Positions 634 through 60,827 of a stretch of DNA of 64,000 nucleotides are shown in pieces. The stretch spans positions 413,664,001 to 413,728,000 of the forward strand of contig OZ024740.1 in the NCBI GenBank assembly GCA_964016885.1, in the 5' to 3' direction. This stretch comes from Eledone cirrhosa (taxonomy: Eukaryota). Position 1 is the first letter of the stretch. Each line of letters starts with the position of its first letter. The notes below the pieces were generated by a model that saw nothing but the letters and a program-made list of their open reading frames with translations, made no database searches and was not told the DNA's origin. The translations under genes were made by a program, and so were the position numbers.

Positions 634-3600
634 CTACAGGCTCATGTAAAGAGAAGGCCCATTCACACGGGCCATTCTCGCCACTTTCACCCACCTTTCA
701 TAAAAACGACTGGGGTGCAGCACCTCTCTCTCCATCCTGATCCTTCTTCCGAAATGATATCGGAAGAAACGGACCAGTTGTTGGCCAGAGAGAAAGGTGC
801 CTGACCTCAGTCCTTTCAGACGCGTCCACCATACAACCTCTTTCGCCATGGCTATTACGCACAGAAACACCGCCTCTGCTTCATCTTTGAAGGGGGGAGG
901 CGGCTTGATCATTACAATAGACTCGGTGGTCAACCGGATCGGTCCCACCCTTGACAGCAGTTGTTCGACATAGCCCCACAGATCGGCTACGCCCGAGCAG
1001 TGTACCAATGCGTGTGCAACGGTTTCCTCGTCGCACACGCATCTGGGACAGATCTTTTTGGCGGGGTCCCTACCCGGGCGCCCGTGTCTGTAGAGCCTTT
1101 CTCGAACGGGTAAAGCTCCTCGGTAGCACTGCCAGGCCAGGGACTTCTGGAAGTTGTCCATAGGTCCCGGGCTGAATGTCCTACCGAACAGGCCGGCCAG
1201 TTCGTCCTCCTCCATGTCTAGGGCTTCTCCGAGGGCGTCGTCGCACCTGCTGCGTACCAGCCCTCTATAGAATGTTGCGGTGGAGTCTCCACTGATAACC
1301 GGATCCGCCTGCCAGAGGGTGGTGAGCGCCTGGGCACACTCAGTATGCCAGGCGCCCAGTTTTCTCGGTCTTTGCTTGACCCAGGATTGCAGCTCGGTGA
1401 ATGAGACGAGTCTGGGAAAGGTTCGTCTCACAAACGAGGCCCACACCGGTTGTCCGGTGAGGAATACGTAGAGGTGCCGTAGCCTTAATGCGTGTTTACG
1501 CATCATTAGCCACGGCATCCCCAGCCCTCCTTTCGAAGGGTGTTGACAGCAGATGGATCTCCTCACCATAGGAGCCCGCCTCTTCCAAAGGAATTGGAAG
1601 AGCGCGCGCTCCATCTTAGTGAGGGTTTCCCTTGGGCAGGGCACTACGGTCAGGCGGTAGTAGATGACGGACGCTATGTAGGTGCTCGCCACCTCCGCCC
1701 GACCTTTCAGGGATAGTTTGCAACTGGCCCACTTCTGGGTCAGTGCAAACACCCTGTTCGTAACCTCCGCCCAGTTTTTCTCCACCTGGAGGTCCGGTCC
1801 GAACCAGACCCGAGCAACTTCACCGGGCCCTCCGTCCAGCGTCCGACGACGCCATCGGAGGGCATCGGTCTGCCCCTCCACGTGCCGAGTTGCAAACCGA
1901 TCGACTTGTCCCGGTTCAGCTTAGCCCCTGTGAACTTTTCGTACTCCTCCAGTAAGGTGCCGACCGCCTCGATTTCGGAGGCCGTCGACACCATTACTGT
2001 CACGTCATCGGCGTAGGCCGACACCGCTTTCCGCAATCCCGGTTCCAAAGGGGTGCCCTGCAACAACTCCAACTTCCGCAGTAGTGGTTCGAGAGTCAAC
2101 ACATACAGAAGGGAGGAGAGAGGGTACCCTTGTCGGATGGACCGCGCGATTTTGAACGGCTCCGAGAGGTAGCCGTTCACCTTGACCCTAGAGCAGATGC
2201 GGCTGCTGTGCATAGCAGTGATCCAGCCCCTGAAAACGGGTCCGAAGCCTGCCGCCGCTAGCACCGCATCCAGGTAACCATGGTCGACCCTATCGAACGC
2301 CTTAGATTGATCCAAGTTGATCAGAGCCCCACCAAAGCCGGGTTCGTTCCCAACCCTCTCTATGATGTATCGCATGAGGTGGAGATTGTCATGGATGGAC
2401 CTGGACGGGATAGCGCATGTCTGCGCATCTCCCACCAGGTTGCCCACGACAAGCGCCAACCTCTTTGCTAGCACCTTGGCCAAAATCTGTAACTCTGTAT
2501 TTAGCAGAGTTATGGGCCTGAAGTTACTTATTTCGTCCCCCTTGTTCTCGTCCTTCCTCACTAGCGTGACTACGCCCTTGGTCACAGTACAGGGAATTCT
2601 CCCGTTCTGTTGCCAGTTGCAGTAGACCGCCTCGAGGAGATCGGGGAACAAGTCCGGCATAGCTAGATATAATTCGTAATGAAAACCATCGAGACCCGGG
2701 GATTTTCGTTTGCCGCATTGGCTCAGCACGTCCTCTATCTCAGCGGCCGAAATCGGCTCCTCGCAGGACTTCGCCTCCCTGTCCGAGAGGCGCGGCAGGC
2801 CGTCGAGGTATGGACCGAAGTCCACGTTCCCAATCGGCTCCCCGCCTCTCCCGAACAGTCGGGCAAAGTGCCTTTGAAAGGCCTCACACATCTGCTTAGG
2901 CTCAAGAATCGCCCGTCCATCCAGGTCTCGCAAAGACTGGATGGTGGATTTAGTTCCACTGTTGGCCTCTGTCACGCGGGCCCAGCTAACAGCTTTGGTC
3001 CCCTCGTTCCCTAGAGCACGTATTTTACTTCGGACAACGCAGCCTTCGTGCTTCGCGTCGAAAAACTGGCTCAAAGCCGTTCTCGACGCTAGCACTCTGG
3101 CCACGTCGCCGCTTCTAATTGCCTCTTCTACTCTATCTATTAGCTCCCTTTCCTTCCTATTCCTATCCGCAGCTAGAACCTTACTAAATTCTATCGAGAC
3201 TACTCTAATCTCTCTCTTTAGAGATACCCACCACCTGCTGTTGACGATCGCTCCAGTCAACCGTTCCTTAACTAACGTACTAATCCGATTCCTGTAAGCT
3301 CTACTTGCCGGCAAGGACAAGTTGAGCTTCCAGTAACCGGGGCCCTGTCTATGAGTTCTGTCAAGGTTGACCATGCAGGTCACTAATTTGTGGTCTGAAT
3401 AGCCAACCATGCGCATTTTTGGACAACTTAAAAAGTCCTTATCCTTAATTCTAACTAAGAACCTATCTAGGTACGACCTAGATGATCCGCTACGATTTGC
3501 CCAAGTCCAGGTTGGCGCAGTCGGAAAATCTAGTCGATATCTATCGGCCAGGTCAAATCGACCGATTAACCCTTTGAGGCTATTACACCCCTCTCTATCG

Positions 3601-4062
3601 GGGCAGGCCCCTACGTAGTCCCAGCGTGCATCTAGGATACCATTCCAGTCCCCCACTAATAGCAAGGAGCGGGACGTCCCTAGAAAAGTCTCCAGACGAT
3701 GGAAGAAGTCCGGCCGCATTGACCCGAAAGGGCCGTAGGCGGCTACCAACCTAAACTTTACCACTACCAAGGTCCAGAACCACTAGTCGACCCTCCGGGT
3801 CCAAATGTACCATCTGTGTTGCGAGACCCAGATGTTTTTGCAGCAGAACAACAACTCCACCCCCACCTCCTGGCTGACAGAGAGATGCGTGCATCTCAAA
3901 GTCATCAAAGGTGGGGGCCAGCTGTCGCACGTTGCTGATCCGGGCCTCGCAAATAACCATCACATCTATACGTTGTGACCTGAGGTCATTTAGAAGCATT
4001 GCTTGCTTCCAAGTTGAGCCCAGGCCACGCGCATTTAAACAGCCTACTCTTAGCATAGCCAT
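634..4062 (-). pseudogene. Tx1-like ORF2 (APE endonuclease + reverse transcriptase + zf-RVT), two frameshifts
   Basis: Pieces 3751..4086, 1740..3770 and 634..1881; motifs LNARGL, GDWNG, YSDH, SPGLDG, FRPITLLN, LDQSKAFDRVDH, RQGYPLS, AYADD, CPRC...HALVHC. Confidence 0.92.
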
Positions 4063-11292: not shown

Positions 11293-13696
11293 TCTATATT
11301 ATATATATATATATATATATATTATATAAAGTGAAGATGGGCATTGTTTGGTGTTCCCAACTTGCATGCTACACCGTTCATCCAATTTTCATGAAACCTC
11401 ACACATATATAAAACTCAACGCGTAGAGTGGAATAGGCTACTTAAAAATTTCCTAAAATCGATAATGGGGACCCCAGAAGCCAAAAATCGATATTTTCAA
11501 AAATCGATGAAACTCGACGCAAGTATGTATTTTGATTCGTGGATAAACGTGCGCTACATTAAATTTTCGAAAAATCGGTAATTGGTTCACCAGAGGCAAA
11601 AATCGATATTTACGAAATTTGTCCGATTCCAATGAAATTTGACGTAGGTATGTATTTTGATGCGGGGATTAACGTGGGATACTTGAAATTGTAAAAAGAA
11701 AATCGATAATCGGACCCCCAGAGGCAAAAATCCGGCAACCGAAAAACGCCATTCTTCTTGCTTACATTTGTCGCGACTCCCGCCATGCAAAAATGTTCAA
11801 TCTATCAGGATTATCTACCGTAAGTCTATTTAAATTAACGCTCACCATATTCAGCAAACCTTTTATGCCGATTCTTCCATTTCTTATATAAGGAATATCA
11901 ACACTATACCGCCGCGCATCATTCTGTATTGCACCCAGTCTTCTCAAGCGATCATCGAGCCTCCATGCGCTCCCTTCATTCCCGTGGTCCCACTACCGTA
12001 CCATAATGAGGCATCCGTCAAACTCTGCCCTCTCCCATCCCTGCACGCCGTCGACCTACTGCATCGTTGTGCATCAGCATGCGCATCTCTGCATTGTCAG
12101 CTGCAATTCATTCCTCGGCCCTTTCCATTGCTTGCCCTCCGTGGTCCCTAAGGACTGCCACGGCTCAACATGCCGAATCCCTGCCACCGTCCACCCCTGC
12201 TCATTTCCATTGCCTACTCTCCGGGAGAGCTCAAGACTTCCAGGCCTCACCAAGCCGCATCCCTGCCACCGTCAACCCCTGCCCTCTCCCTTCCCTACAC
12301 GCCGTCGTCCCACTGCATCGTCATGCTTCACCATGCCGCATTACTGCCCTGTCGGTCACCTCCCCTCCTCAGCCATTTTTTTGGCCTGCTCGCCGTGCTC
12401 ATTCAATACTGCCTTGACTAACTAATCCGCATCCCTGCCACCATCAAGTCCTTCCTTCTCCCTTCCCTGCACGCTGTCGTCCCACTGCATCGTCATGCCT
12501 CGCCATGCCGCATCCATGCTCTGTCAGCCACCATGCCCTCCCCTTTCCTCTCCCTTACCCGCACGACTTGGTCCTTCACGAGTGCCATGGTTCACCATGC
12601 GGAATCCCTGCAACCGTCAATCCCGGCCATCTCCCTTCCCTGCACGCCGTCGTCCCACTGCATCGTCATGCATCACCATGCCGCATCAATGCTCTGTCAG
12701 CCGCCATCCCCTCCTTGGCCCTTTCTTTTTCTGCACGCAGTGCTCCTTCAAGACTGCCATGGCTCACTATGCGGCATCCTTGCCACCGTCCACCCATGCC
12801 CTCTTCCTTGCCTGCTGGCCGTCGCCCCACTACATCTTCATGCCTCAGGATGCCGCCTCCATGCACCTTCAGCCACCATCCCCTCCTCGGCCCTTTCTTT
12901 TGCCTGACCGACGTGCTCCTTCAAGACTCCCATGGCTATCTATGCCGCATCAATTCCTTGCCACCCGCTTAAATGTCATCAGTATGGCTTATTGTTGCCT
13001 CATTTGATCACCGATTTTCGCAGGCTAAACACAATACCAACGTACACGATAGTCCATGGTAAATCTTTTTAATTACATGTTCTTGAGGCTGTTGCAAAGG
13101 GCAATAACCCTGGACGCAATTTTGATCAACTTTTTTTCACATATAGCAAATTTACCGGGACAGGTCTTTAGCTACTCAAATCTACTTCAGAGGTCACGCA
13201 TTCATGTAAAAAATCAATAAAACTGAAGCGGGGGTTCGACTTTGCGCAAAAAACAAGGCAAAGTTGCAGATGGGATAATTTTTTACAGTCCGATTTTCGT
13301 GAAAACTGTCGCAAATAATTCGTCCATTATGCCGCGATTCAGATAAAGTCCCTTTTATTTCTTGTTCTGCACATGTGAGCGCCAAAATTGTAAAAAAAAT
13401 ATAAAAAATTGAAAAAATCGACTTTTTCACCCTGCTTTAAAAATCAACTGAAATTTCAATTTCAAGTTAATTTGACTTCCGTCAGTCTTGCAAGGAACAA
13501 TTTCAACGATACACTCTGAACCTACAATTGATCCATTATTTATGCTCAATTACACACCTGCGTATACTAACCACTATTTTTTCCCTTGAGGTTCGAAGGT
13601 TTTTGCACCTGTGATGCGCGGGAAGTAATTTCAAACATTTTAACAACAGACCAAAGGTCGACTTACACCCCGGCAACGCCGGGTACTTCTGATAGT
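11293..13696 (+). mobile_element. Non-autonomous Helitron-like element
   Basis: 3' GC hairpin CCCGGC-AAC-GCCGGG (13669..13683) followed by GATAG|T (degenerate CTAG|T); 5' TC...TATATAAAG start; internal tandem repeats; no Rep/helicase ORF. Confidence 0.6.
12005..12965. repeat. C-rich ~175-bp tandem repeat, about 5 diverged units
   Basis: cgccgtcgtcccactgcatcgtcatgc-like motif at ~12046, 12300, 12472, 12645 and 12820. Confidence 0.85.
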
Positions 13697-13835
13697 ATAT
13701 ATATATATAAATAGATAGATAGATAGATATATATACACTCACACACACACACTAGCACGCACACATATACACACATTTACACATATATATACATATATAT
13801 ATACAAATATATATATATATACCTATATCTATACA

Positions 13836-14024: not shown

Positions 14025-14032
<8 letters not shown>

Positions 14033-14491
14033 ATACTTGGGGAGGGTCATATTTGTGTAATATTGCCAGAATTAATAACAGAACACACTCAGTTTGGTTG
14101 GTTTTTGCTTTTCGCTTCAAATAAATATATAGACAGACTAAATAAAAATGGCGTAGACATACAATGCAACGGGAGGAAACAATAGCACCACTGACGTCGT
14201 TGCAGAAGTGCAACGAAAGATTTATGATAAACTATATATATGTGTTTGTGTCTATATTGTATCTGTATTATTTTTAACCGTTGGTCAGTCAATGGCAACA
14301 TTGAGGACCGAGTAAATTAGATTACCGATATAAAAGACACAGAAGCGAAAAGCAAAAACCAACCAAACAGTGAGTGTGTTCTGTTATTAATTCTGGCAAT
14401 ATTACACAAATATGACCCTCCCCAAGTATAACAATATTTGTTTCGACACACGATTTCATATAAAAAACCTCGCAAAACTAATTCATCGCCG

Positions 14492-14492
<1 letters not shown>
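14025..14492 (+). mobile_element. PLE pseudo-LTR with inverted 5' copy (foldback) and degenerate HHR
   Basis: 14025..14118 is inverted at 14342..14436; shares atgaccctccc(c/a)aagtataacaatat with the PLE at 20305..22182; CTGACGT-GTTGCA/TGCAAC-GAAA at ~14190..14228. Confidence 0.75.
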
Positions 14493-14521
<29 letters not shown>

Positions 14522-14526
<5 letters not shown>

Positions 14527-14637
14527 TTGGAAAAAAATGAAAACGAAATTTCATTTCTCACTCTTAGTATGGCACTTACTTAAATGTAAGTATGTATGTA
14601 TACGTACATACATATATGTATACAGACGTACAGTAGC

Positions 14638-14686
<49 letters not shown>

Positions 14687-15135
14687 TATACACATATGCA
14701 TACAGGTACACATACATATATGCACGCATCAGTTTAGCCGACGTTTATTATAACGCCTGCTTTGTTCGTTTGTTTGTCAACAAATCGAACAGCCTGAATT
14801 TATGCCATACGGTGTTAAGGCAACCACGTCACCTTTTTGTTCAACACTGACACAGGAACGATGTACTTGTTTCAAGCTTGTTAGCTATCATCAGCACCGT
14901 TTACCCATCTGCCAGATAGTTGAACGTTCGAAAGTATATATATCCTTATCAAAATTAACGGCTGAGCAGCCTAATTTGCATATTGAGTGAGTTAAATCGG
15001 TCAGGCATACCGAAAACGATAAGTTGAAAAAAAATGAAAACGAAATTTCATTTCTCACTCTTAGTATGGCACTTACTTAAATGTAAGTATGTATGTATAC
15101 GTCCATACATATATGTATACAGACGTACAGTAGCA

Positions 15136-15221
<86 letters not shown>

Positions 15222-16171
15222 TATACACATATGCATACAGGTACACATACATATATGCACGCATCAGTTTAGCCGACGTTTATTATAACGCCTGCTTTGT
15301 TCGTTTGTTTGTCAACAAATCGAACAGCCTGAATTTATGCCATACGGTGTTAAGGCAACCTTCGGTATGCCTGACCGATTTAACTCACTCAATATGCAAA
15401 TTAGGCTGCTCAGCCGTTAATTTTCATAAGGAAAGTATATACTTTCGAACGTTCAACTATCTGGCAGATGGGTAAACGGTGCTGATGATAGCTAACAAGC
15501 TTGAAACTACTACATCGTTCCTGTATCAGTGTTGAACAAAAAGGTGACGTAGTTGCCTTAACACCGTATGGCATAAATTCAGGCTGTTCGATCTGTTGAC
15601 AAACAAACGAACAAAGCAGGCGTTATAATAAACGTCGGCTAAACTGATGCGTGCATATATGTATGTGTACCTGTATGCATATGTGTATATATATATGTAT
15701 ATATATATATATATATATGCATGCTACTGTACGTCTGTATACATATATGTATGTACGTATACATACATACTTACATTTAAGTAAGTGCCATACTAAGAGT
15801 GAGAAATGAAATTTCGTTTTCATTTTTTTTCAACTTATCGTTTTCGGTATGCCTGACCGATTTAACTCACTCAATATGCAAATTAGGCTGCTCAGCCGTT
15901 AATTTTCATAAGGAAAGTATATACTTTCGAACGTTCAACTATCTGGCAGATGGGTAAACGGTGCTGATGATAGCTAACAAGCTTGAAACTAGTACATCGT
16001 TCCTGTGTCAGTGTTGAACAAAAAGGTGACGTGGTTGCCTTAACACCGTATGGCATAAATACAGGCTGTTCGATTTGTTGACAAACAAACGAACAAAGCA
16101 GGCGTTATAATAAACGTCGGCTAAACTGATGCGTGCATATATGTATGTGTACCTGTATGCATATGTGTATA

Positions 16172-16202
<31 letters not shown>

Positions 16203-16255
16203 GCATGCTACTGTACGTATGTATACATATATGTATGTACGTATACATACATACT

Positions 16256-16262
<7 letters not shown>
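14522..16262. repeat. Retrozyme-like HHR tandem array, family R1 (~480-bp monomer): ~1.7 minus-oriented then ~1.9 plus-oriented monomers
   Basis: Orientation flips at 15360/15361; HHRs at 14859..14899 (-), 15477..15517 (+) and 15959..15999 (+); period 482; flanked by (TA)n. Confidence 0.88.
15959..15999 (+). ncRNA. Minimal type I hammerhead ribozyme, intact
   Basis: CGGUG-CUGAUGA-U-AGCU(AACA)AGCU-U-GAAA-CUAG-UA-CAUCG; GUA cleavage triplet. Confidence 0.88.
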
Positions 16263-16290
<28 letters not shown>

Positions 16291-16295
<5 letters not shown>

Positions 16296-16403
16296 AATAA
16301 AATGAAAACGAAATTTCATTTCTCACTCTTAGTACGGCACTTACTTAAATGTAAATATGTATGTATACGTACATACATATATGTATACAGACGTACAGTA
16401 GCA

Positions 16404-16447
<44 letters not shown>

Positions 16448-16856
16448 CAGGTACACATACATATATGTACGCATCAGTTTAGCGGACGCTTATTATAGCG
16501 CCCGCTTTGTTCGTTTGTAAACAAGCCGTTAATTTTGATAAGGAAAGTATATGCTTTCGAACGTTCAACTATCTGGCAGATGGGTATACGGTGCTGATGA
16601 TAGCTAACAAGCTTGAAACTAGTACATCGTTCCTGTGTCAGTGTTGAACAAAAAGGTGACGTGGTTGCCTTAACACCGTGCGTCATAAATTCAGGCTGTT
16701 CAGTTTGTTTACAAACGAACAAAGCGGGCGTTATAATAAGCGTCCGCCAAACTGATGCGTACATATATGTATGTGTACCTGTATGTATATATATATGCAT
16801 GCTACTGTACGTCTGTATACATATATGTATGTACGTATACATACATACTTACATAT
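16291..16856. repeat. Second R1 insertion (inverted 5' part plus plus-oriented partial monomer)
   Basis: Minus segment 16291..~16524, plus segment to 16856; intact HHR 16589..16629; diagnostic substitutions differ from the neighbouring array. Confidence 0.85.
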
Positions 16857-16864
16857 ATATATAT

Positions 16865-17542: not shown

Positions 17543-17545
<3 letters not shown>

Positions 17546-17868
17546 CACAAAAACAAGATGGCGTAGGACAGAACAACGGAGAGGCACAAAAAACAAAGAA
17601 AAGAATCCCCAGTCACTGAAGAGGTCACAGAATGTGTGACGAAAGAACTTTGACAATATATAAACAACCATCTGCTTGTGGAACCAACCAACCACCGGAA
17701 ATTTATAAATTCCTAAATTTATAAATGTATCATAATAAATTGAAGTGAAAGCACTGGTGCGTGTTTTTCTTATTGGCAACATGACCCTCCCAAAGTATAA
17801 CAATATCGGTTTCAACACACGATTTCAGATAAAGAATCTTGCTAAACAAATTCGGAAACGAAATGTTA
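17543..17868 (+). mobile_element. Solo Penelope pseudo-LTR
   Basis: Near-identical to the reverse complement of 20305..20615; flanked by TA microsatellites; includes putative ORF start MTLPKYNNI. Confidence 0.85.
17612..17654 (+). ncRNA. Minimal type I hammerhead ribozyme in PLE pLTR
   Basis: GUCA-CUGAAGA-G-GUCACA(GAAUG)UGUGAC-GAAA-GAAC-UU-UGAC. Confidence 0.75.
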
Positions 17869-20241: not shown

Positions 20242-20304
<63 letters not shown>

Positions 20305-22176
20305 TTTCGTTTCTGAATTTGTTTAGCAAGAATCTTTATCTAAAAACGTGTGTTGAAACCGATATTGTTATACTTTGGGAGGGTCATGTTGCCAATAAGA
20401 AACACACGCACCAGATGCTTTCACTTCAATTTATTATAAATTAAATTTATAAATTTAGGAATTTATAAATGTCCGGTTGGTTGGTTGGTTCCACAACCAG
20501 ACGATTGTTCATATATTGTCAAAGTTCTTTCGTCACACATTCTGTGACCTTTAGTAACTGGGGATTCTTTTTTTTGTGCCTTTCCTTTGTTCTGTCCTAC
20601 GCCATCTTGTTTTGTGTGTGTTGTATGCTTTGTTTGCGCATGTGTTACATCCGGGTGTCTGTGTGTGTTTATATATGTTTATTTATTTGTTTATTTACAT
20701 GTTACTGGTTGGTAGTTTGTTCTATGTGTGTGTGTTTTCATGTTGTCCTTAATTGTAAGTTGTGATGTTGCTATTCCATTCATGCCTTCTATTTAATCTT
20801 GGTTCGAGTTCATTTATGTTTATTGCCTCTGTGATTTGTCTAAACATTGCCTCTTTTCTGTGAGTAGATTCTATTTTTATTTATATGTTTTTTTAATTTA
20901 CCCTTATGTTCTATTTTAGCATGTTTATAGAGTACAGATGATTCTTTACTATCTTGAATACTCGCCAGTGTTCATTTATCCCTTCTCCTATACTACGAGC
21001 TGTCTCACCTATGTACACTATATTCTTATCTCTACATTGTCCTTCAGTACATCTTATGCTATATACTACATTTCTAGTTTTACAGTTAACATGGGGGCTT
21101 AGTTTACAGATTATACATTTCTTATCTATACAGGGAGGTCTTTGAAAAGGGTATGTATTGCTAATAAGTGTTTTTATGGAGGTACCTTGTCTTTCTACTA
21201 TCTTAATATTGAGTTTATGTTTATCTAGGGCCCTTCTGAATTTGTAAGCTAATTCACCTCTAGAGGTTGTATTGATACACATTACACTCTGGTATTTATT
21301 GCTATCATACCATGAGTTTATTCTATTAACCTTATTCCTAATTCGTTCTATTCTATTCCAAAATTTGCTCCTATACAAGGGGCAGGTCCCATTTGTATCA
21401 TTATTTACCATTTTTCCCATTTGGTTCTGGGTCCTCTATATTCTCTGATTTTATCTCGCTGATTGTAACCAGAGAACTGCATACGGTGGATGAAGTGTTG
21501 TATGTGTCTCTCTAGTTCTTCGGGGTTGCACATGCGGGACACATTTCTCATCACCCGTACCAAATCCGCAATCAGTATGTTGATTTTGGTGTGGTCCGAA
21601 ACAGCTGAGTTTCGGTGAATCAGATATTTAGAAGTCATGGGTTTAGCATAATGGGAATGGAGGATTTGTTTTTTGTTATTGGTAGTATCTAACCAGAGCT
21701 CTATGTCTAGTACAGGTAATCGATGGTTGGGGTGTTCGCTTGGGTAGTCTATAGTAATTCTAATACTCTGGTGGATGGAGTTAGCTATTTGCTGGATACT
21801 TTCCATGGTGGTTTTCTCTAATCCCTGACTGTTCTCTCGTTGGGGGCGTTTTACTACGATGTTTATATCATCAACGTAGCGGGAGTACATTATCAGGGTT
21901 AAGACGTAGCTGTCTTCTAATTGTTCTTTAAGTTTAAGTTTAAGTCTATTGTCCCACCATACCATGAATAGGTTAGCTATATCACCGGCAATGCTAAACC
22001 AATGGCTGCTCCCTCCTCTTGGGCATATGTTTTTCCATTAAATTTGAATATATGTTAAATTTGAACCAACCGGAAATTTATAAATTCCTAAATTTATAAA
22101 TTTAATTTATAATAAATTGAAGTGAAACAAATAGGTGCGTGTGTTTCTTATTGGCAACATGACCCTCCCAAAGTAT

Positions 22177-22182
<6 letters not shown>
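20305..22182 (-). mobile_element. Penelope-like element, 5'-truncated, with 3' pLTR and inverted pLTR piece at the 5' end
   Basis: RT and GIY-YIG ORF pieces; pLTR 20305..~20760 (-); inverted pLTR piece 22060..22182 (+); (TA)n both sides. Confidence 0.9.
20790..22040 (-). pseudogene. PLE reverse transcriptase + GIY-YIG endonuclease, frameshifted
   Basis: YSRYVDDI, LPVLDIEL, YAKPM (21405..21965); CIDKKCIIC, VVYSIRC...VYIGETARS (20911..21420). Confidence 0.9.
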
Positions 22183-28938: not shown

Positions 28939-32086
<3,148 letters not shown>

Positions 32087-35686: not shown

Positions 35687-38600
35687 TGATTTCTTTATTC
35701 TCCACAAGGGCTGACATCAAGAAAAACATCACAGACGGAACAGGACGGTACGATGTGGGTTTTGTGCGTGTAAATATTTTTATTATTTATATAAGAAAAG
35801 AAAAAAGACATAAAACATATATATATAAACAATAAAATGAAAATTGAAACAATGAAAAATTCCCCAATAGGGGGGAAACTTCCGAGGGTTACTCGTGGCG
35901 AAAACCACACAAAAGACCACGGCCACCCTGACTACCAGGGCAAGCGCCCTCTCTCAATTTTTCCATCTCTCAAACTACAGACGTATATTCAGAGTGGTCC
36001 CGTTCACTCGGACCATTCTCGCTACATTCACCCACCTTTCAACAAACTTGCTAGAAAGCAGCACTTGCCTCTCCACCCTGATTTTCTTCTTCAAGTGAAA
36101 CTTGAGAAAATTAATTAGGGATTCGCCGAAGAGGAAAGTGTTTGTCTTTAATCCTTTTAACCTTGTCCACCACACAATCTCTTTCGCCATGGCCACCAGG
36201 CAGATGAAAACCGCCTGCCCTTCCTCTTCAAAGGAAGACGACGAGACCATCTGCACAATGGACTCAGTCGACAACCGGATCAGTCCCACACGTGACAGCA
36301 ACTGTTCGACATAGCTCCACAAATCAGCAATGCTCGGGCACTGAACGAGTGCGTGCACAACGGTTTCGTCGCTATGCGCGCATCTCGGACAGGCTCGACT
36401 GACGGCACTTCCGTGCCTGTAGAGCTTATCTCGAACCGGCAACGCTCCCCGGTAGCATTGACAGGCCAGGGATTTTTGGAAGTTATCCATAGGCCCCGGG
36501 TTGAAAGTTCTCCGGAAGAGAGCAAACAGCTGATCTGCTTCGATGCCCAGGATCTCTCCGAGAACGTCGTCGCTCTTCCCCTCCACTAGTCCTCTATAGA
36601 ACGCCGAGGTGGATGTTCCACCGATACTGGTGCTTAACTGGGAGAGGGCAGTGAGCGCCTGGAGACATTCCAGTTTCCAAGCGCTATCCCTCGGTCTTTT
36701 TCTGACCCAGGACTGCAGCTCCGTCAAGGAGACGAGCTGTGGGAAAATGTGCCTGGCGAACGGCGACCACACCTGTTCACCATCAAGGAAGCACCAGAGA
36801 TGTCGCAGCCTCAGCGCATGTTTGCGCATCATCAGCCATGGCGTGCCCAGTTCTCCACGCAACGGGTGTTGACAGCAGATGGATCGTCTGACCATGGGAG
36901 CGCGTCCCTTCCACAAAAAGCGGAAGAGGAGGCGCTCCATTTTGGTGAGAGTTGGGCTGGAGCAAGGGACGACGGTGAGGCGCTAGCAGATGACGAATGC
37001 GATGTACGCATTCGCTACTTCCGCCCGTCCTTTCAGGGACAGCTTCCTCTCAGCCCATTTTTGGGTGAGGGAGGCCACCCTGCTCGTCATCTCGTTCCAG
37101 TTTTTCTCCATCTGGAGGTCCGGTCCGAACCAGACCCTGAGCAATTTAACCGGTCCGTCCGTCCAACGCCCCACGACGCTGTCGGACGCCATGGACTTGC
37201 CTCTCCAGGTCCCTAGCTGCAAGCCCACCGACTTTTCCTGGTTTAATTTTGCTCCTGTCATCGCTTCGTATTCCTTGAGAGCGGTGCCGAGCATCTGGAC
37301 GTGTGTGGTTCTCGACACCACCACGGTGACGTCGTCAGCGTAAGTCGACTCGGATTTCCCGCATCCTAGTTCGCGTGGGACGCCCCTTATCGCCCCCAGT
37401 TTGTGCAGTAACGGCTCGAGAGCCAATACGTACAAGAGGGACGAGAGGGGACAACCCTGGCGGACTGAGCGCATGATGCTGAATGGCTGCGACAGGTGAC
37501 CGTTCACCCTCACAACTGAGAAGATGTCGCTGTACATTGCTGCGATCCAACACCTGAAAACGGGCCCGAAACCGGCTGCCTCGAGGACCGCCGCCAGGTA
37601 CCGATGGTCAACCCTATCTAATGCTTTGGATTGATCCGAGTTGATCAGGGCCCCACCCTTGCCAGGTTCCTTAACTACCCTCTCTATGATGTATCGCATG
37701 AGGTGGAGGTTGTCGTGTATGGATCTGTCCGGAATGGCGCATGTCTGCACCTCTCCCACCAGACCCTTGACGACAAGCGCCAACCTCGTTGCTAACACCT
37801 TGGCCAAAATCTTGAACTCTGCGTTTAGCAGGGTTATGGGCCTGAAATTATCAATAACATCCCCCTTGTTCGGGTCTTTTCTCAGCAGCGCCACTGCTCC
37901 CCGGCTCACAAAACTGGGAATGCTCCCGTTCTGCTGCCAATTGCAGTAGACGTCTGCCAAGAGGTCACCGAACAAGTCTGGCATTTACCTCTTGTGCAGT
38001 TAGCCATCGCTTCCCGTATTTCCCGTTAGCCATCGCTTCCCGTATTTCACCGGCTGTTATTGGCTTTTCGCAACACTGTGCTGCAGTCGTCGAGAGCCGA
38101 GGCAGTCCGTCGAGGTATGCACTGAAGTTCATGCCCCGATCCGGGCCGCCGCCGCTCCCGAACAGTTCAGCAAAGTGCTGCTGAAAAGCTTCATATATCC
38201 GCTCGGGTTCGAGCATCACGCACCCGTTTTGGTCAGACAAAGACCGAATTATTGCCACGTCGCGACTCTGCCACCCGGGCCCATTGGACGGCTTTTGTCC
38301 CCTCGTGTTTCAGAGCACGCGCTCTAGCTCTGACAACGCAGCCTTCGTGTTTTGCATTGAAGAATTGGTCGAGTACCAATCTCGCCGCAAGCACGTCGGT
38401 TGCGATGCCTGTCCTAAACGCTTCTTCTAGCTTTCTGACTAGCTCTCCCTCTACTCTATTTTCCTCTATCACTACTCCTTTGCTAAACCTAATCGACTCT
38501 ACTTTAATTGCCCTTTTCAGGGCGAACACCCACCTATTGTTGACGACCGCTCCCGTCAACGCCCGCTTAACTAATTCGCTAATCCGGTCTCTGTAGGCCT

Positions 38601-41600
38601 TGCGCGCCGGGAAAGACGCGTTCAGCTTCCAGTAACCAGGCTCTTGTCTATGAAGTCTGTCGATGTCGATCTCACAGATCACAAATTTGTGGTCTGTGTA
38701 GTCGACTATTTTAAATTGTGGACAACTTATACTAGCCTTATCTAGTTCCCTGCAGAATACCCTATCTAGATACGATCTGGATGACCCGACGCGGTTTGTC
38801 CATGTCCACATTGGCACATTCGGGTGATCCAGTCGATACCTGTCAGACAGTTCAAAACGTCTGAGCAGGTTGGTGAGGCTCTTGCACCCTCCTCCCCTAT
38901 CCACTAGCCCCACACGATCCCAGCGTGCATCCAAGATACCGTTCCAGTCGCCCACTAACACTAAAGAGCGGGACGTTCCAAGAAAGGTCTCTAGACGTCT
39001 GAAGAAATCTGGCCGTCATGTCCCTGTTGGGGCGTAGACGGCTACTAGCCTGAAAGCATTGCCTTCGCTGCCGGTCACGTCCAGCACCACCGACTTACCT
39101 TCTGGGTCCAGGAAGATGGCCCGTATCGCGAGATCCAAGCCTCTCCGAAAAACGGACGGCAACCCCTCCACCCGATCCTGGACGGCTGGGAGATGCGTAT
39201 ACATCGTAGCCGCCGAAGATCGGTGCGAAGGCCCGTGCCTCGGAGATTCTGGTTTCACTGATGGCCACCACATCTATGTTTAATGACCTGAGGTCATTGA
39301 GCAGGTGACCCTGCTTGCAAGATGACCCCAGGCCACGTGCATTTATACTGCCTATTCTGAGTACAGCCATGTTGGATGAGAAACTGGGCAAATGAGAAAG
39401 GGTCACTTACATTGTTCGTGTGGTGAAGGGACAGTAGAACCGTCCCTTTCGCTGGTCATGGGTGTTTCCAAGAGGATGTCAGTGTATATCCCCTTGGTAA
39501 CCGTCCCTCTGAAGTCTCCAACTGCGTTGGGGAATTTTTGTTTTAAAGGTTTGTATTGTTCTATTGAGATTTCGATGATGCTTATGTTTGTCGGGAGAGT
39601 TCTTTGTGTTGTTGGGGTGTAGTCATTTTTTTCCGTGATGTCTGTGTGCTGCTTTATATATTTTATGAGTTCTTTTTTTGCTATGTTTATGGCTGTGTAC
39701 TTTTGGGGGGGAGGGGTGATTTTGTTGCTGTTTTCTTCTTGTTGCTGTTTGGTGTGTGTGTCTTGTTGTGTTTGCGTTGTTGGTGTCTGTGGTGGTGTTG
39801 CTGCAAGTTTCCCTGCTTTCTTTACCCCTCTTTGTATGCCTTCGCTTTTGGAGGGTGAATCTAAGGGGTTTTTTCTTTTTTCTTTTTTGTGGCAGACTGT
39901 TTGCCACGTCACTCCCGTCTCAAACTCCATGTCGGATTCTGTGGCGTCTGGGAGGGGTATGTGCTCCACGGCTGTTGGTGGTGGTAGTGGAGCCCTCTTC
40001 GGCAATTTTGTTGCTGGTGTAGCTATTTCAAATGTAGCTATTGGTGTTGCCGCTACTGATGCTGCTGCTTTAGTTATCCGTGGCCTTGGTACGGGTGCTA
40101 CGGACGTTGTCCTCCTACACACCGTGGAAGGGGCTTCTTTGTTTGTTGCCTGTCCTGCTCTTGGTAGCAGCGGACCAGGTATTGGAAGGAGAGGGGCCCT
40201 CTTCGGTGTCTTCTGCGGGCAAAAGGCCCTGAGGTGACCTTTCGACCCACAGAGATAACATTTTGGCCGTCTTCCTTCTACACTTATAGGGAGTTGGAGT
40301 CCTTCCTCAAAGTCTATGATATCGGGGATAGCCTCGATACATTCCTGGTCAGTTTGTATAAGCATTTGCATGCCTATACCTGACCAGTTCTCTCTCCCTA
40401 TTTTTTTCTACTTGCAGCATGGTCGCCCTGTTCTCAATTCCAGCAAGGACAGACGCGGCCAGCCAAGGTATGGGCACGTCGGGTGGGACCTGGGTCACTT
40501 TGACCCTCACAATTTTCTTCCCGCAGTAGGAGGGCACCAAGACTAACTCCTCACTCTTTAGGGTTTCCAACGAGTGAGACTTTGCTTCCTGGGGTGTGGC
40601 GAAAAGTACGTCTACTGTGGCGTACTTTCTGCCTCGGGTGATGTGGGTTTTGCGTGCCCAGACGCACCCCAAGGCCTTTTGGATTTGAGCCTCCGTGGCT
40701 CTCTCCACTCGATGTGAGATTTTGCTTACGGTGCGGTAAGTCACCGTCCGTAGCTGCTGGTCCTTGAAAAAATCGGGTGGAGGTTCAGGGAAACTCTATT
40801 TGCGCTTCTTGTCACCATGGCCCTTGCGACTGCCATCTCCTCCTCTGTGACTAACACTCTCTCGATATTTCGGGCGACACCTGCAAAAGAAGTGGTCCCT
40901 TTTTCAGCAGCACCACTATTGCTGCCGCTACTGGTCTTACTGGTGGTGATGAGGTCGCTATTACAGGTATCGGTGTCATTGTTGTTCTTTTCGCTGGTAC
41001 AGTTGTTGGTGTTGTTTTCGTTGATACTATTGCTGCTGTTACTGTTATTGTGACTGTTGTTATTATTGTTGTTTTTGGTGATACTGTTCCTACTATTATT
41101 GTTGTTGTGGCTGTTGTTATCGTCATTGTTATTGTCGTTCTCGACCTTACCGCTGTTATTTTTGTTATTGTCGTTCTCAACCTTACCGCTGTTATTTTTG
41201 TTATTGTCGTTCTCGACCTTACCGCTGTTATTTTTGTTATTGTCGTTCTCGATTTTACCGCTGTTATTTTTGGTGATGTTGTTGGTGTTATTGTTGGTGT
41301 TGTTTGTGTAGAAATATTTGTTAATTTTAAATCTGTAACAATCTTGTAACAATCTTTTTTTCGTTTGTAATATTTTCGTTTATATTTACCTCCGCTGGAA
41401 CGCTGTCTTGTTGACATGCTGATAAAGTCTCCCTCTCTCTGTGTTGTCTGACAGTGCTCTCTCTCTTTGTGTTATCCATGTTGAAATTTTTCAAAAAAAA
41501 TATTTTTACACAAATACGAATACGACACCCCGTAAAGGGGTGCCGTATTATTTACTAGTGAACCCCTGTATTAGGTGGGTCACTTCTAAACATTTATCAA

Positions 41601-43207: not shown

Positions 43208-46200
43208 TCATCATCATCATCATCATCATCAACGTTTAACGTCCGTGTTCCACGCTTGCATGGGTTTGGACGGGGGTAGTCCCACTTGAGGCAAGAGTGA
43301 TTTTCTTGCTCGCATAGGACTGTCTGGCAGGTTTTCTACAGTTGGATGCCCTTCCTAACACCAACCACATTTACAGTGTGGGTCTGGGAGGTTTTTACCG
43401 TGTTGCCTACACGGCCACATTACAGCGTGGACTGTGTGTTTTTTTGTCGTGACACCTACACGATCTCATTTGTTTCGGCCTGGATGGCGCGGCACCAACA
43501 TAACTTTACATAGAACGGGGTGGTGTGGATGGGGTGGGGGTGGTGGGACGGGCTGTATTTTGTTAGAGATGCCTACTGGCAAGGCGGGTCTTCTCTATTA
43601 CTGAGTACCGCCAAAGGTCTCGGTCCAGTGACATTGTCTTGGTGAGGTGTAAGTGTGTGAGGTCGGAGTTTATCAGCTCGTCCCAGGTTTTTCTGGGTCT
43701 GCCTATTCCGTGGCTACCGTCTATCTTTATTGCCCTGCACTTTGTTATACAGCTATCATCCTTCATGCGCATCACGTGACCATACCAACGTAGCCTTCTC
43801 TCTAGTAAACAACATCTGATCCCTCTTATTTCTAATTTTTTCCTTAGTTCGTTTATGCCTTGTCGTTCACGTATATTACTATTACACATCCAGCGGAGCA
43901 TGCAAGCTTCGTGTCTCTCTAGTCTGCGTATATCCTCTGCACACAATGCCCAGGTCTCACTGCCATGCAACATTGCTGTTCGTATGCAGGCATCGTACAG
44001 CCTGCCTTTCATTTTTAGGGAGAACCCTTTAGCGGCTAATAGTGGTATAAGCTCTCTGAACTTTTTCCACCCAGTTCTGACTCTAGCTACTGTACTTTCA
44101 GAGCACCCTCCCCCACTGCTGATTTTGTCACCCAGGTAACGGAAGCTGTCCACTATTTCTATAGAACCCTCTGCGCAGTTGAAAGAGCTAGTATTTTGTG
44201 GGCACTTGCTGCTACTTATATCCCCAGAACACCGGCCACATGTAAAATCTATGTTCTTAGTTAGCTTACCTGTGATCCCACTACATCTTTTATACACCCA
44301 AACTTTGCATTTGGGACACAAAATGGAATTTCTACCTACGCCTTTCCTACACTCTGCGCATGGCCACTTCCCGGAGGGGACCGCCGCCTTATTTTCTTTC
44401 TTACAAACTAGAACTTTAGTCTTAGCTAGGTTAATTTTAAGGCCTTTTGATTCTAGGCCGTGCTTCCATGTTTGGAATTTCTTCTCTAGCTCGGCCATTG
44501 ATTCAGCTATGAGCGTTAGATCATCTGCGTATAGGAGTTCCCATGGGCAGCCGGTCTTGAACTCCACTGTTATAGCCTGAAGGGCAATAATAAATAGTAG
44601 GGGGCTAAGAACAGAGCCCTGATGGACACCAACTTTTACGCTAAACTCTTCACTATATTCGTTGTTAATTCTAACCTTGCTGACTGTTTTTTTATACATG
44701 GCTTGTATAGCTCTCACAAGCCATTCATCAACACCTAGTTTTCTAAAAGCCCACCAGATAATGGAACGGGGGACTCTGTCGAAGGCCTTCTACAAGTCGA
44801 CGAAAGCTAAGTATAGGGGTTTACTTTTAGCTAGGTACTTCTCCTGTAGTTGTCGTACAATGAAAAGAGCGTCTGTGGTACTTTTTCCTGACACAAACCC
44901 GAACTGCATTTCATCTAGATCAATTCGCTCTCTGATTAGTTGCGCTATAACTTTTTCCGTGACCTTCATGACCTGGTCGATTAATTTAATGCCTCTATAG
45001 TTACTCCTATCTAGGGCATCTCCTTTACCCTTATAACAGTTAACGATAATGCTGCTGCGCCAGTCCTTCGGAACAACCCCATTCTGTATGACTTGGTTGA
45101 CTATCCGGGTGACTATGGTGTGTCCCACCGTACCAGATGCCTTCAGCATCTCGGCAACTATTTCCGAAGGCCCAGCCGCCTTGCCTGTCTTCATATCTTT
45201 GATTGCCTTACTTATTATACTACCCTCGACTAACACTGCTGGTCCCTCTATTGGGTCGATGTGGGGGAGACTGTCTTTCTCCCATTTATTCTCCTCATTT
45301 AGTAGCCTTTCATAGTGACACTTCCAAGCTACCTTCTTATCGGCGTCGGTGATGGCAAGTATGCCGTCATCGTTAAGTACACACTTCTCCCCGACAATAT
45401 CACTGTTTTCCTTGACACATTGCCTAGCAATCCTGAACACCTCACGTTTTTGGTCATCGCGTTGTAGAACATGCTTGAACTTTCTTTCCTCTGCTTCCCT
45501 TCTTGCGAAGTACACTTGTCTCCTAGCTTCCCTCCTGACCACTTGATAGTCTTCTCTGCTTCCCCCATCCCGCCATACTTTCCAAGCCTGCTTTTTGGCC
45601 TTAATTGACCCCTCCACCTTACTGTTCCACCACCATGTTACTCTCCTCCTGCCTACAGGCCTGCTCCAGCCACAGACTTCGTCTGCCGCCGTCAGCAGGT
45701 TTGCTTTCAGGAATTCCCACTGTTCCTCTACCTTATACGTCTCTAATTGCTCTTCCTCACTGTCGAAAGCATCAAGTAATATGCTTTGGAATTTATATTT
45801 TCCTGTGGGGTCCTTTAGCTTCCATATTTTTCTCCTGAGGATAGTCCTCTTCTGTTGTCTAGTACGTCTCGTCCTGACTATTAGGTCGCTAATTATCAGT
45901 CTATGTTGGGAAGTGCATTCTTCATGGGGGAGGGATTTAGTGTTTACGACAGTCACTTTGTCACGTCTTCTGGTAAGGATATAATCTACCTGGCTAGTAT
46001 GTTCCCCTGATCTGTAGGTGATCAAGTGATTGTCTCGTTTTTTGAAGTTAGTGTTGCAGATAGTTAGGTTATTTGCGTCGCAGAATTCCAGGATTCTGGA
46101 GCCTTCCTCATTTCTAGTACCAAACCCATAGCCTCCATGGATTTCGTCGTAGCCGTCACAATGTTGTCCAACGTGACCGTATAGGTCGCCTGCAATAATT

Positions 46201-46950
46201 ATATAGTCACTGTCGGTTATTTGGGAGGTAGTGAGCATCAGTGTCTCATAGAATCTGTCTTTTATAGTGCCGGGCAGTCCGGATTGGGGTGCGTACGCGG
46301 ATATTACTGTCACCGTAGTTCTATTGAGGACAAGTCTTATTTTAATTATTCTGTCGTTCACTCTATTTACGTCTATTATCTTATCTGCCCACTTTTCTGC
46401 TACCATGATTCCTACTCCACCCAGCCCATTGTCGTTTCCCACCCAGAAAAGCTTATAGCATCGTTTTCTACCCACAATGTATCTAGCAGATCCACCCCTC
46501 CACCTGGTCTCTTGGATACAACAAACATCGACCTCCTTACGTTCAAGCATTTCTACAACCTCGTTAGAGCGACCCTTTAAGGTGCCTACATTCAAGGTAC
46601 CAAATCTGAAGTTTTGGATTGCGTTTGGGGGGTTGGAAAGGTGGGGGCGGGGGGAGATGGGGTTATGTTAGCCATCCGCGGCCGAAACAAAGAGGCATGC
46701 TCGCATTTTCGTCCTCGAGGTGTGATTGTCTTTAACTTTGGCATTGTCGCTGAGCGTCCAGATTTTTCTCTCTTCAACTCTCCGGAACTCCGTAGTCCTT
46801 CCATCCTACATATCGAAGGCGACCAGGTAAACGATAGTATAGGCCTCTGGCTTATGATTGGTCCACGTAATAATAATGGTGGTGTGTGGGGGCGGGAGGG
46901 AGGGGTGTTGAGTTGTGAGCGAGCGAGAAGATAGGTTTTAAGTGAGAACC
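43208..46950 (-). mobile_element. RTE-clade LINE, near full length
   Basis: Single long EN-RT ORF; 3' end ...ggacgttaaacgtt(GAT)n. Confidence 0.93.
43563..46595 (-). pseudogene. RTE ORF (APE endonuclease + RT + PHD-like insertion), one in-frame stop at ~44790
   Basis: NVGTL, CCIQETRW, SAYAPQ, VDYIL, SQHR, YRGIKL, AFVDL*KAFD, HQGSVLSP, LLYADD, FRYLG, RRLRWYGHV, GRPRKTW; the two listed ORFs share one frame. Confidence 0.92.
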
Positions 46951-48051: not shown

Positions 48052-51000
48052 GGCCGCACATGTGTGAAGACAGACAAGTCTGCGGGGGAAACGGTTCGTA
48101 GCTTTAAGCTGTTTTAAAGTGTCTTTTTTTTGTATTTTCTTGTCATTAACGAAACTTAAGGTACACATCTTGATTTAAAGAGAGGGATACCTCTCAATAT
48201 TCGGATACCTCTCAATATTCGGGCTTTAAGCCCGAATATTCAGATTTATTTTTAAAATCTTCGAAAAAAATCGCTTCCCCACCAAAAGAAAATTATGGAA
48301 ATTTTCGACCTTGAAACGGTAAACAACGTTCAGGTCAAAAGTTTAAAGGCAGCCACTGCAGATTTCACCACGACTACGACGGCTACAGTCATGCCTGTCA
48401 TCCACTCTACTGAATGTGAAGGCAAAACTAAGAAGCTACCATCACAACCTTCTGGCATAGCAGCAGTATCATCTGAAAACGACATCACCACCACCGCCAC
48501 CACCACCACCACCACAACAACAACAACTCAGAGCAATAACGACAAAAACACCGACAGCTTCAATGTAAACAAGGATGGCGGTGGCAACAGCAAGAATGAC
48601 AACAACAACAATAAGAGCATCAGAAACACCACATTTGCTGCAGCAGCAGCAGCAAAAACAAAGCGCTTACTGAATATCGATATTGATATTAGCGATAAAG
48701 ACGAACAGTTAGCCAAAGCGTGGAGGCTAATTAAACGGGAGAAGTCCTGGGCAAACCTGACCATCCCGGACGAGGCAATAGCGGCCATGCAAAGGAGGAC
48801 GGTGCTCTTTCGATGTATTTCGGTGCAGACACGAAAAGTGGAACTTGCGAGCCAACTGCGTTGGAGTACATCGGAAGTAACATAGAGTACAAAGCAAGAG
48901 GAAAACAGTTCGGTACCATCTCGGTACTGTTCAAATCCGAGGCCCTCGCTATTAGGCACTCGCTGATCCCCTGCAGAACGGAACGCATTATCATGCATCC
49001 GTCCTATATGGGTAAAAGGACAGTGAAGGTACGCATTCCCAGCATCCCACCAGGAACGAACATATGGTGGCTGCTGGGATGCGTAATCGAGGAGGGGACA
49101 GACACCACCCTCCTGGACATCAAAAGGACAGAGAGAGAAGACTGGTCCGGAATGGATTTGGAGATTCTTCTCCAAATGAAACCGGAGGATATAAATAACA
49201 TCCCAGATTTTGCCCGCCTGCAGGACGGGACAACAATCCAACTAATGATTGACGGAAGAAGGCCACGCTGCTTCGTTTGCGGGGAAGCCACGCATCTTCA
49301 AGCCTTCTGCCCTCAGCGCAAAAATGCAGGGGGTCGCAAACCTCCTTTGTTGCCAACGCCAGTGTCAGCACGGAAAGCTGCACCACCACCACCACCAAAA
49401 ACAACATCAACAAAAACACGGACACCAACATCAAAAGCAGCCGGATCACCACCAACACCAAAACCAATCCAAGGAGAAAACGAGGAAAGCTCTCCCACTC
49501 AGAGACACTCACAGACACAGACCCTTTGTCTTCCAGCAGCGAAGATGAAGGAAAACCCAAAAGTGCAAAAAAACAGAGAAAACTCACACAAAAAAAAAAG
49601 CCCCTACAAAACACAAAAACACACACAACAAAAAATACAGACACCACTAACGCAGACACTTCCCCAATAACATCAGCACCATCAGCAACATCGACACCAC
49701 CTCCACAATCCCCGAAACGCAAACAACCTAAACAAACACAAGTACAAATAAACACACAAATACCTGAAATTGCAGACACCACACCTACAACAAACATAGA
49801 CATACCCGAAACAACACCGCCAAAACCATCGCCACCACCTTCACCAAAACGAAAACAAATAAAACCACACCAACAAAATGTTAAAAACTTCGTGCTTGTC
49901 AGAAGGGCCAACGATAAACTGATGGCCCTCTTAGCGCGAAGCGAGGACATTCAAACAGAGGGGAAGATTTTTGAAATGAGCACATTTTGCGTGCCAGAAG
50001 ATTTGCTTCTGGTCCGAATGTCACTCAATTCTTTCAAAGAAATTCGAGAGAGCTTTCCTCAAGACGTGGGAAACCCGAATGTGAAACCCACATCAAGACT
50101 TTTAAAGGGGTTCCCAAAAGAAACCCCACCAACCATGGAGGTCGAACCACCCGACCTTCACAAGACCCGGGAGGTAAGTAAACCTTCCCTCTCTCTCTCT
50201 TAGTTTACCAATATGGCAATATGGCCATATTAAGAGTAGGAAGTTTAAATGTTCGCGGCCTGGGGTCACCCTGGAAGCAGGGTCGCCTGCTCAACGACCT
50301 CCGGTCGCTGGAAATGGATGTGATTGCCGTAAGCGAGACCAGAATTTCCGACACGCGTGCACTAGCCCCCATTTTCGACGACTATCAGATCTTCGCATCT
50401 GTTAGCGGGCCGGGAATGGGGGGTGGGGTGGCAGTGCTGTTTAGGAAAGGACTGGATCTCGAGGTAAGGTCGATCTTCCGGGACCCGGACGGTAAGTTGG
50501 TGATCTTGGATGTGAGCAGTAGCGAAGGTGGTGCCTTTAGACTGCTGGCCGCCTACGCCCCTACAGGGGCCGGACGACCTGACTTCTTTAGGCGCCTGGA
50601 GACCTTTCTGGGTACGTCTCGCCCTTTACTGTTAGCGGGGGACTGGAATGGCATCTTAGACGCACGCTGGGATTGTGTGGGAGTAGCCGATAGGAGCGGG
50701 GGGTGCAAAAGCCTCAAGCACCTACTCAGCCAGTTCCAACTGTCTGACAGGTATCGACTAGATTTCTCCAATGTGCCAGTATGGACATGGACCAACCGAA
50801 TGGGGTCATCTAGATCGTATATAGACAGAATCTTCATTAGGAAAATAGATAGAAATAGTGTGGGCTGTCCACTTTTTAAAACGGTCGCCTATTCAGATCA
50901 TAAATTTGTGATCTGTACGGTCGACCTAAATAAAACGCGTAGGTTAGGACCGGGTTACTGGAAGCTGAACATGTCATTTCCGGCACGTAAGACTTACAGG

Positions 51001-60408: not shown

Positions 60409-60468
60409 TTTCATTCTGATGAATGAAAGCAATTTTGGTTGCTTTCAAGAAACCACTGGTAAATGAAA
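60409..60468 (+). ncRNA. Type I hammerhead ribozyme, canonical core
   Basis: UUUCAUU-CUGAUGA-A-UGAAAGCAAU(UUUG)GUUGCUUUCA-A-GAAACC(ACU)GGUA-AAUGAAA; 7-bp stem I, 10-bp stem II, 3-bp stem III. Confidence 0.85.
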
Positions 60469-60494
60469 TAATTATCTTATTTTTGTTTATTACA

Positions 60495-60678: not shown

Positions 60679-60822
60679 TAGAAGTGGTTACACAACAGTT
60701 AGTTCACCATACCGAGAACAATTGTTTCACCTTAGCGGATCCTCAGCTCGTATTACGAGCAGAGGATCCGGCAAGGTGAAACAATTGTTCTCGGTATGGT
60801 GAACTAACTGTTGTGTAACCAC

Positions 60823-60827
<5 letters not shown>
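60679..60827. repeat. Near-perfect 149-bp palindrome with back-to-back HHRs
   Basis: Arms of ~73 bp; HHR 60713..60750 (-) core CUGAGGA, 60756..60793 (+) core CAGAGGA. Confidence 0.9.

Follow-up and report, generated by a model that had tools for sequence, protein, structure and literature searches.

Tail and inversion anatomy of a hammerhead retrozyme in Eledone cirrhosa suggests insertion by a Penelope-like enzyme

The locus examined here raises the question of how a repeat that encodes no protein of its own comes to lie in short arrays within (TA)n and whose enzyme copies it there. The window, i.e., the whole stretch of DNA that was analyzed, comprises 64,000 nucleotides of Eledone cirrhosa (assembly GCA_964016885.1, contig OZ024740.1, positions 413,664,001 to 413,728,000) and comes from a 3.0-Gb genome rich in (TA)n.

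Hammerhead repeats in paired arms

Monomers at the locus recur with a period of 479-482 nt and belong to a ~480-nt repeat family whose members measure 466 to ~500 nt, being longer where an internal (TA)n has grown. The monomer has a GC content of 35.5% and is non-coding, the longest ATG frame on the circle having 78 aa; an ORF check of the circle found no reverse transcriptase (RT) plus GIY-YIG ORF, making the element non-autonomous. A hammerhead scan of the window recovered the motif CGGUG-CUGAUGA-UAGCUAACAAGCUU-GAAACUAGUA-CAUCG at 15964(+) and 16594(+), along with CGUUG-CUGACGA-...-CAGCG in a 422-nt family. A type I hammerhead motif is present in each repeat unit, two of the four at this locus (14894(-) and 15482) being damaged in stem III. 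In the copy at 15959..15999, stem II consists of a U·U plus 4 bp and stem III is the palindrome ACUAGU, while loop II is variable (AACA/AAUA) in other subfamilies. Genome-wide, 28,556 sites match the core pattern, compared with 6 for a reversed-pattern control, placing the motif far above chance. Rfam at its gathering threshold returned no match anywhere in the window, so the hammerhead call rests on our own motif scan. The predicted circular monomer is highly self-paired (z=-7.7 against 30 shuffles), a value owed in part to (TA)-rich palindromes. The type I hammerhead, the non-coding unit and the high copy number bear out the retrozyme identity given to the repeat in an earlier, sequence-only reading of this DNA; on sequence grounds, it belongs to the non-LTR retrozymes.

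With the animal non-LTR retrozymes described by Cervera and de la Pena (2020, PMC7229834), the repeat shares non-coding tandem monomers with a type I hammerhead per unit, a GC content below 50%, a self-paired predicted circle and coexistence with Penelope-like elements (PLEs), but its monomer exceeds the 150-450 bp quoted there. Its palindromic, tetraloop-bearing stem III is that of axolotl HHR_Amex1, and its stem II has the U·U base found in HHR_Amex2; unlike in those ribozymes, both weak features sit in one ribozyme here. The main text of that paper does not use the word "inverted," and we saw no description of fixed ends in it.

That two separate insertions lie side by side, as the sequence-only reading proposed, is confirmed (14522-16262 and 16287-16857); what it missed is that each consists of two inverted arms and is not a plain tandem array (Table 1). 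All three retrozyme insertions of the window, including that of the sister 422-nt family, have the identical plan, with two arms facing outward into (TA)n. The two families are, as had been noted, diverged but alignable (73-75% identity). Insertion 1 is probably a dead copy because the damaged copy belongs to its only hammerhead pair; insertion 2 is 92-94% identical to the young subfamily.

Table 1. Features of the retrozyme locus and of related elements in the window
Feature	Position	Strand	Remarks
Inverted terminal-repeat-only PLE insertion	14029..14492	.	S + L ends; directly left of insertion 1
(TA)n target flank	14493..14521	.	More (TA)n at 16261-16290 and past 16857
Insertion 1, left arm	14522..15360	-	1.7 monomers; 3' end leftward; stops at long end (L) in (TA)n
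Insertion 1, 58-nt tail	14522..14580	-	Between short (S) and long (L) ends; at left end only
Hammerhead motif, stem I present, palindrome of stem III broken	14859..14899	-	Scan (14894 minus)
Insertion 1, right arm	15361..16262	+	1.9 monomers, period 482; stops at short end (S) in (TA)n
Damaged hammerhead	15477..15517	+	Cleavage triplet CUA, palindrome broken (15482)
Intact type I hammerhead motif	15959..15999	+	Stem I CGGUG/CAUCG, core CUGAUGA; predicted cleavage after 15994
Insertion 2, left arm	16287..16518	-	L end and tail; without hammerhead
Insertion 2, right arm	16524..16857	+	S end; intact hammerhead
Intact hammerhead, insertion 2 right arm	16589-16629	+	Motif scan (16594)
PLE-1 terminal-repeat copy	17545-17866		Own hammerhead-like motif, L end; between (TA)n tracts
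5'-truncated PLE (PLE-1)	20304..22180	-	RT and GIY-YIG remnants; inverted short arm; L + S ends, 61-nt tail, in (TA)n
Sister 422-nt insertion	28966..31980	.	L end on minus arm, S end on plus arm (5.3 monomers); flanked on both sides by (TA)n

Fixed 3' ends and variable 5' ends of the arms

Arm 3' ends fall either ~263 nt (S) or ~321 nt (L) past the cleavage site, the two sites being 58 nt apart (tail of 56-58 nt). Both ends could be classified in 22 two-armed insertions from a first set of 37 (13 had an unclassified end, and two S+S rows that were pure-microsatellite matches were dropped); these combine S with L in 21 cases and L with L in one (p=1e-5), or S with L in 21/24 if the dropped rows are kept. 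A held-out set was made from the first 45 L-ends among the matches listed, of which five had already been seen and were skipped. Among the remaining 40 insertions, 23 have an S partner, none has an L partner, 5 have an inverted arm with an unclassified end and 12 are one-armed; an inverted, 5'-truncated copy thus stands at the 5' end of 28. Coordinates suggest a second L+L pair among the L junctions listed. Exact junctions with (TA)n number 424 genome-wide for L (control, 0) and 1,639 for S (control, 1). Outward arm order is seen in 11 of the 12 close opposite-strand motif pairs among the matches listed, the twelfth pair having arisen by duplication within another PLE. A retrozyme family of 310 nt, distinct from these and discussed below, combines S with L in all three of its two-ended insertions.

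The arms of an insertion are unequal in length, and their 5' truncation points vary. Both derive from the same subfamily in 30 of 31 assigned insertions (4/35 were unassigned). In 28 of 29 testable cases, an arm is more similar to its partner than to the median other arm. Of 86 arm 5' ends, not one falls within 3 nt of the cleavage site, which excludes a pile-up at that site and nothing more, since only 1.7 are expected by chance. Where the arms meet (n=24), an overlap of 1-15 nt is seen at 14 junctions and filler at 8, and the other 2 are blunt. Fold-back priming was considered and rejected, as the 5' ends of paired arms are unrelated. Monomers of one array share private variants, and in two arrays (L117; L047-L051) two variants of the monomer alternate, a pattern that either a dimer template or the duplication of a dimer could give.

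For the target-site duplication, which in non-LTR retrozymes exceeds 4 bp, there is a single 9-bp case, read by eye; (TA)n sites hide any duplication. It flanks an old retrozyme copy with an A-U stem I pair (L114, 3473-6596) that lies in a non-repetitive site inside a member of a third PLE family and was later partly duplicated in inverted form together with its host. A chimeric PLE/retrozyme insertion was considered for this stretch and rejected in favor of that sequence of events. Because the retrozyme merely sits in this PLE and was duplicated with it, the case cannot name the partner.

A Penelope-like enzyme as the probable source of mobility

We were able to identify several PLE families in the same genome. 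PLE-1, with 20,226 first-look candidates, has full ORFs of ~1,230 aa between hammerhead-bearing repeats; the order within its terminal repeat is hammerhead, S, L, and 12 of its 13 two-ended insertions combine S with L, with a ~61-nt tail. In PLE-2 (37,090 candidates), the ORF has 709 aa and about 88 nt separate the two ends; the third family is that of stretch L114. Their identification is based on motifs read by eye and on Atlas neighbors with HTH_animal, GIY-YIG and RVT_1; Pfam gave no match for the PLE fragments or full ORFs, and there is a weak match to an intron endonuclease (E=0.26). One 1,407-aa open frame (L161, 7132-2912, minus strand) has a piece of PLE-2 RT fused in frame to the PLE-1 ORF. 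Comparison of the monomer with PLE-1 ends revealed no significant homology (best E=0.32, a 14/15 match near the L end that we set aside as chance), nor did comparison with PLE-2 ends, where the matches are mostly (TA)-rich. As neither tested family is homologous to the monomer, PLE-1 is closest in tail length only, and the element at 20304..22180 represents a candidate partner family.

Published accounts of PLEs describe an inverted copy, a one-ended tail and a bias toward (TA)n (Craig et al. 2021, 10.1101/2021.04.23.441226). Further, a PLE protein studied in vitro cleaves AT-rich DNA on both strands and extends each of them; reverse transcription begins at two neighboring positions within the RNA, which delimit the tail. 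Hammerhead cleavage is dispensable for this protein, whose dominant substrate is unprocessed RNA (Frangieh et al. 2024, PMC11167929). The retrozyme insertions share with PLEs the inverted 5'-truncated arm, the one-ended tail and the microsatellite or AT-rich target (Craig et al. 2021; PMC11167929), as well as internal start sites unrelated to the hammerhead cut (PMC11167929). They differ from PLEs in having no ORF, a tail of 56-58 nt versus 30-40 nt and arms that are multimers of a short unit. The tail-and-inversion anatomy, which active PLEs of this genome also display, is a PLE signature, and the insertions match published PLE behavior in every feature that could be examined. We put at about 80% the probability that this non-LTR retrozyme is copied into (TA)n by a PLE enzyme from a predicted circular or uncleaved multimeric RNA.

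A mechanism can be conceived along these lines. Tandem copies would be transcribed, and their hammerheads would cut as dimers via the palindromic stem III, while the long stem I would keep the ends together for circularization. A PLE RT-endonuclease would then nick both (TA)n strands, and cDNA would begin at two internal sites 58 nt apart, S on one strand and L on the other. Each cDNA would extend for a variable distance, often beyond the cleavage site and over several monomers, before both truncated ends become linked to each other, in most cases through short microhomologies. We infer that each strand has one start site, that both arms come from one RNA and that the template is circular, although the genomic data look alike for a circle and an uncleaved linear multimer and cannot separate the two. 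More tentatively, and with slightly less than even odds, animal retrozymes in general may owe their insertion to a PLE dimer. It would prime the two target strands at a pair of fixed sites within a single ribozyme-made RNA circle and copy this circle in rolling-circle fashion in both directions. If so, arrays would be born at insertion, a structured RNA without homology to its helper would suffice for recognition, and the insertions would document, in the genome, the use of a single start site on each strand.

The units might instead be terminal-repeat (pLTR) pieces of an autonomous PLE not found here rather than an independent retrozyme. Such pieces would bear the same tail, inversion and (TA)n signature, the hammerhead-S-L order is that of the PLE-1 terminal repeat, and Xenopus retrozymes are reported to be homologous to pLTRs (bioRxiv 10.64898/2026.07.22.740005). 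We nevertheless regard this as unlikely, given head-to-tail runs of up to 11-12 monomers with no ORF between them; moreover, in 112 stretches searched with two PLE query proteins, PLE matches near the repeat are separated from it by (TA)n or are hosts into which it has inserted.

Mobilization of the RNA by a LINE, with inversions arising through L1-type twin priming, is a still less probable account. The window does hold several LINE-like ORFs, endonuclease and RT frames that, from their motifs, we take to represent at least two families (634-3782, 35975-39015, 43563-46667, 50182-53599 and 56069-59522). Twin priming, however, has a variable second site and yields arms copied from different portions of one RNA, whereas in the present insertions each of the two ends is fixed, the arms share sequence and poly(A) is absent; LINEs are nonetheless named as a candidate in PMC7229834. 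We give similarly little credence to a DNA element, either a MITE (terminal inverted repeats, TA target) or a satellite spread by rolling-circle replication, in which the ribozyme-like motif would be a neutral passenger and arrays would grow by unequal crossover. Inverted ends in TA fit such an element, and local duplication could yield the two arrays with alternating monomer variants; but its ends would not be expected to belong to arms that differ in length, in 5' truncation and by 58 nt at the 3' end, and it sits poorly with RNA-level covariation that includes G-U pairs and with the 310-nt family, otherwise unrelated, in which the same hammerhead persists with altered stems II and III (see below).

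Non-LTR retrozymes are already known, and their mobilization by PLEs has been proposed (PMC7229834; Li et al. 2026, 10.64898/2026.07.22.740005). Working on vertebrate retrozymes, Li et al. reach the same conclusion as we do for PLE insertion, on the evidence of co-occurrence and pLTR homology, and propose that arrays grow locally; our own case is built on insertion anatomy, and comparison with the ends of two PLE families gave no significant pLTR homology. The word "tail" is absent from their main text. The Chlamys elements differ in other respects: their non-autonomous members, such as MRC1, resemble the autonomous partner at the 3' end, and most lack hammerheads (Craig et al. 2021), in both of which they are unlike the present retrozyme. 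We found no report of retrozymes with the tail-and-inversion signature among titles and abstracts, a search in which subscription papers, Repbase and supplements are largely uncovered. Insertion anatomy is a line of evidence for the PLE role separate from co-occurrence and from sequence homology in frogs, and it is strong in three repeat families (480, 422 and 310 nt). Since it predicts two exact RNA positions for the start of reverse transcription, and candidate enzymes with intact ORFs occur in the same genome, the question is testable by the existing in vitro PLE assay.

Stem I and selection on the ribozyme fold

The sequence-only reading had drawn attention to a flip of the middle stem I pair, which is indeed G-U here and U-G in the 422-nt sister, and had correctly placed the sole core change at N7, the one difference in the 31-nt core between young copies. 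Scoring the stem I pair in the first 100 motifs on contig C1, which represent 58 insertions, gave 49 U-G, 36 G-U, 11 A-U, 2 C-G and 2 U·U. In a FastTree phylogeny built from 54 copies, rooted at the midpoint and with no clade test applied, A-U copies are placed close to the root and the two U·U copies diverge ahead of the U-G clade; the flip was therefore probably a single two-step change through an unpaired U·U state that still inserted. Genome-wide marginals (5' G, as in the ~480-nt subfamily here, 13,001; 5' U, 8,090; 3' G, 7,833) fit about 3% U·U. Taken alone, the wobble flip is weak and minor evidence.

Selection on the fold, which that reading had derived from the flip, finds better support elsewhere. 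Between the young subfamilies, the hammerhead is more conserved than the remainder of the monomer (3/41 substitutions versus 62/290; Fisher p=0.035), as is the 31-nt core by itself (1/31; p=0.015). Once near-identical young copies and any with a damaged motif had been set aside, 38 of the 54 tree copies remained. In these, 98% of cells pair and both sides have changed in 12 of 80 pairs, a number matched in 3 of 500 shuffles (slid controls, 1-5). The wobble flip is only one of these 12, and nine fall outside stem I and its extension. Covariation across the monomer thus appears to favor selection on the fold, but since the structure was derived from the same alignment and the copies are related, it offers support and not a probability. 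As for the "function" claimed earlier, it stands as selfish propagation of the element; nothing indicates a host function.

The best sign of such selection is the 310-nt family (13,744 motif matches genome-wide, control 0; e.g., L062-L090). Sequence comparison detected no homology between its monomers and the ~480-nt ones outside the ribozyme, yet the core and loop are kept, while stem II has become UUCU/AGAA and stem III another palindrome, ACGCGU; it too forms head-to-head arrays, with a ~26-nt tail. The retained palindrome points to dimeric cleavage under the energy model, in which a double hammerhead reaches -17.8 kcal/mol versus -1.0 for two active monomers. This double hammerhead is the lowest-energy predicted cofold in the 310-nt family but not in the ~480-nt family, and for the A-type monomer and dimer, the lowest-energy predicted folds are inactive ones. 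In axolotl ribozymes with such weak stems, dimers cleave far better (PMC7229834).

Several other palindromic or repetitive features were also observed. A hammerhead-like motif of a different family, whose stem II has 10 bp and whose stem III is longer, occurs at 60411-60470 (+), with (TA)n ~40 nt later. At 60680-60826, a near-perfect palindrome ending in (TA)n contains a minimal hammerhead-like motif on the minus strand (60746), with a palindromic stem III and a plus-strand mirror that lacks the core. Elsewhere in the genome, a perfect 192-bp palindrome lies between (TA)n tracts (L179, 724-915), 17/19 of its bases resembling the retrozyme L end (E=0.28). Upstream of the locus, a GC-rich tandem repeat of 172 bp (4.2 copies, 78% identity) occupies 12231-12951, and 13660-13700 holds a GC hairpin followed by a CTGATAG end and then (TA)n, an arrangement that resembles a Helitron-type 3' end.
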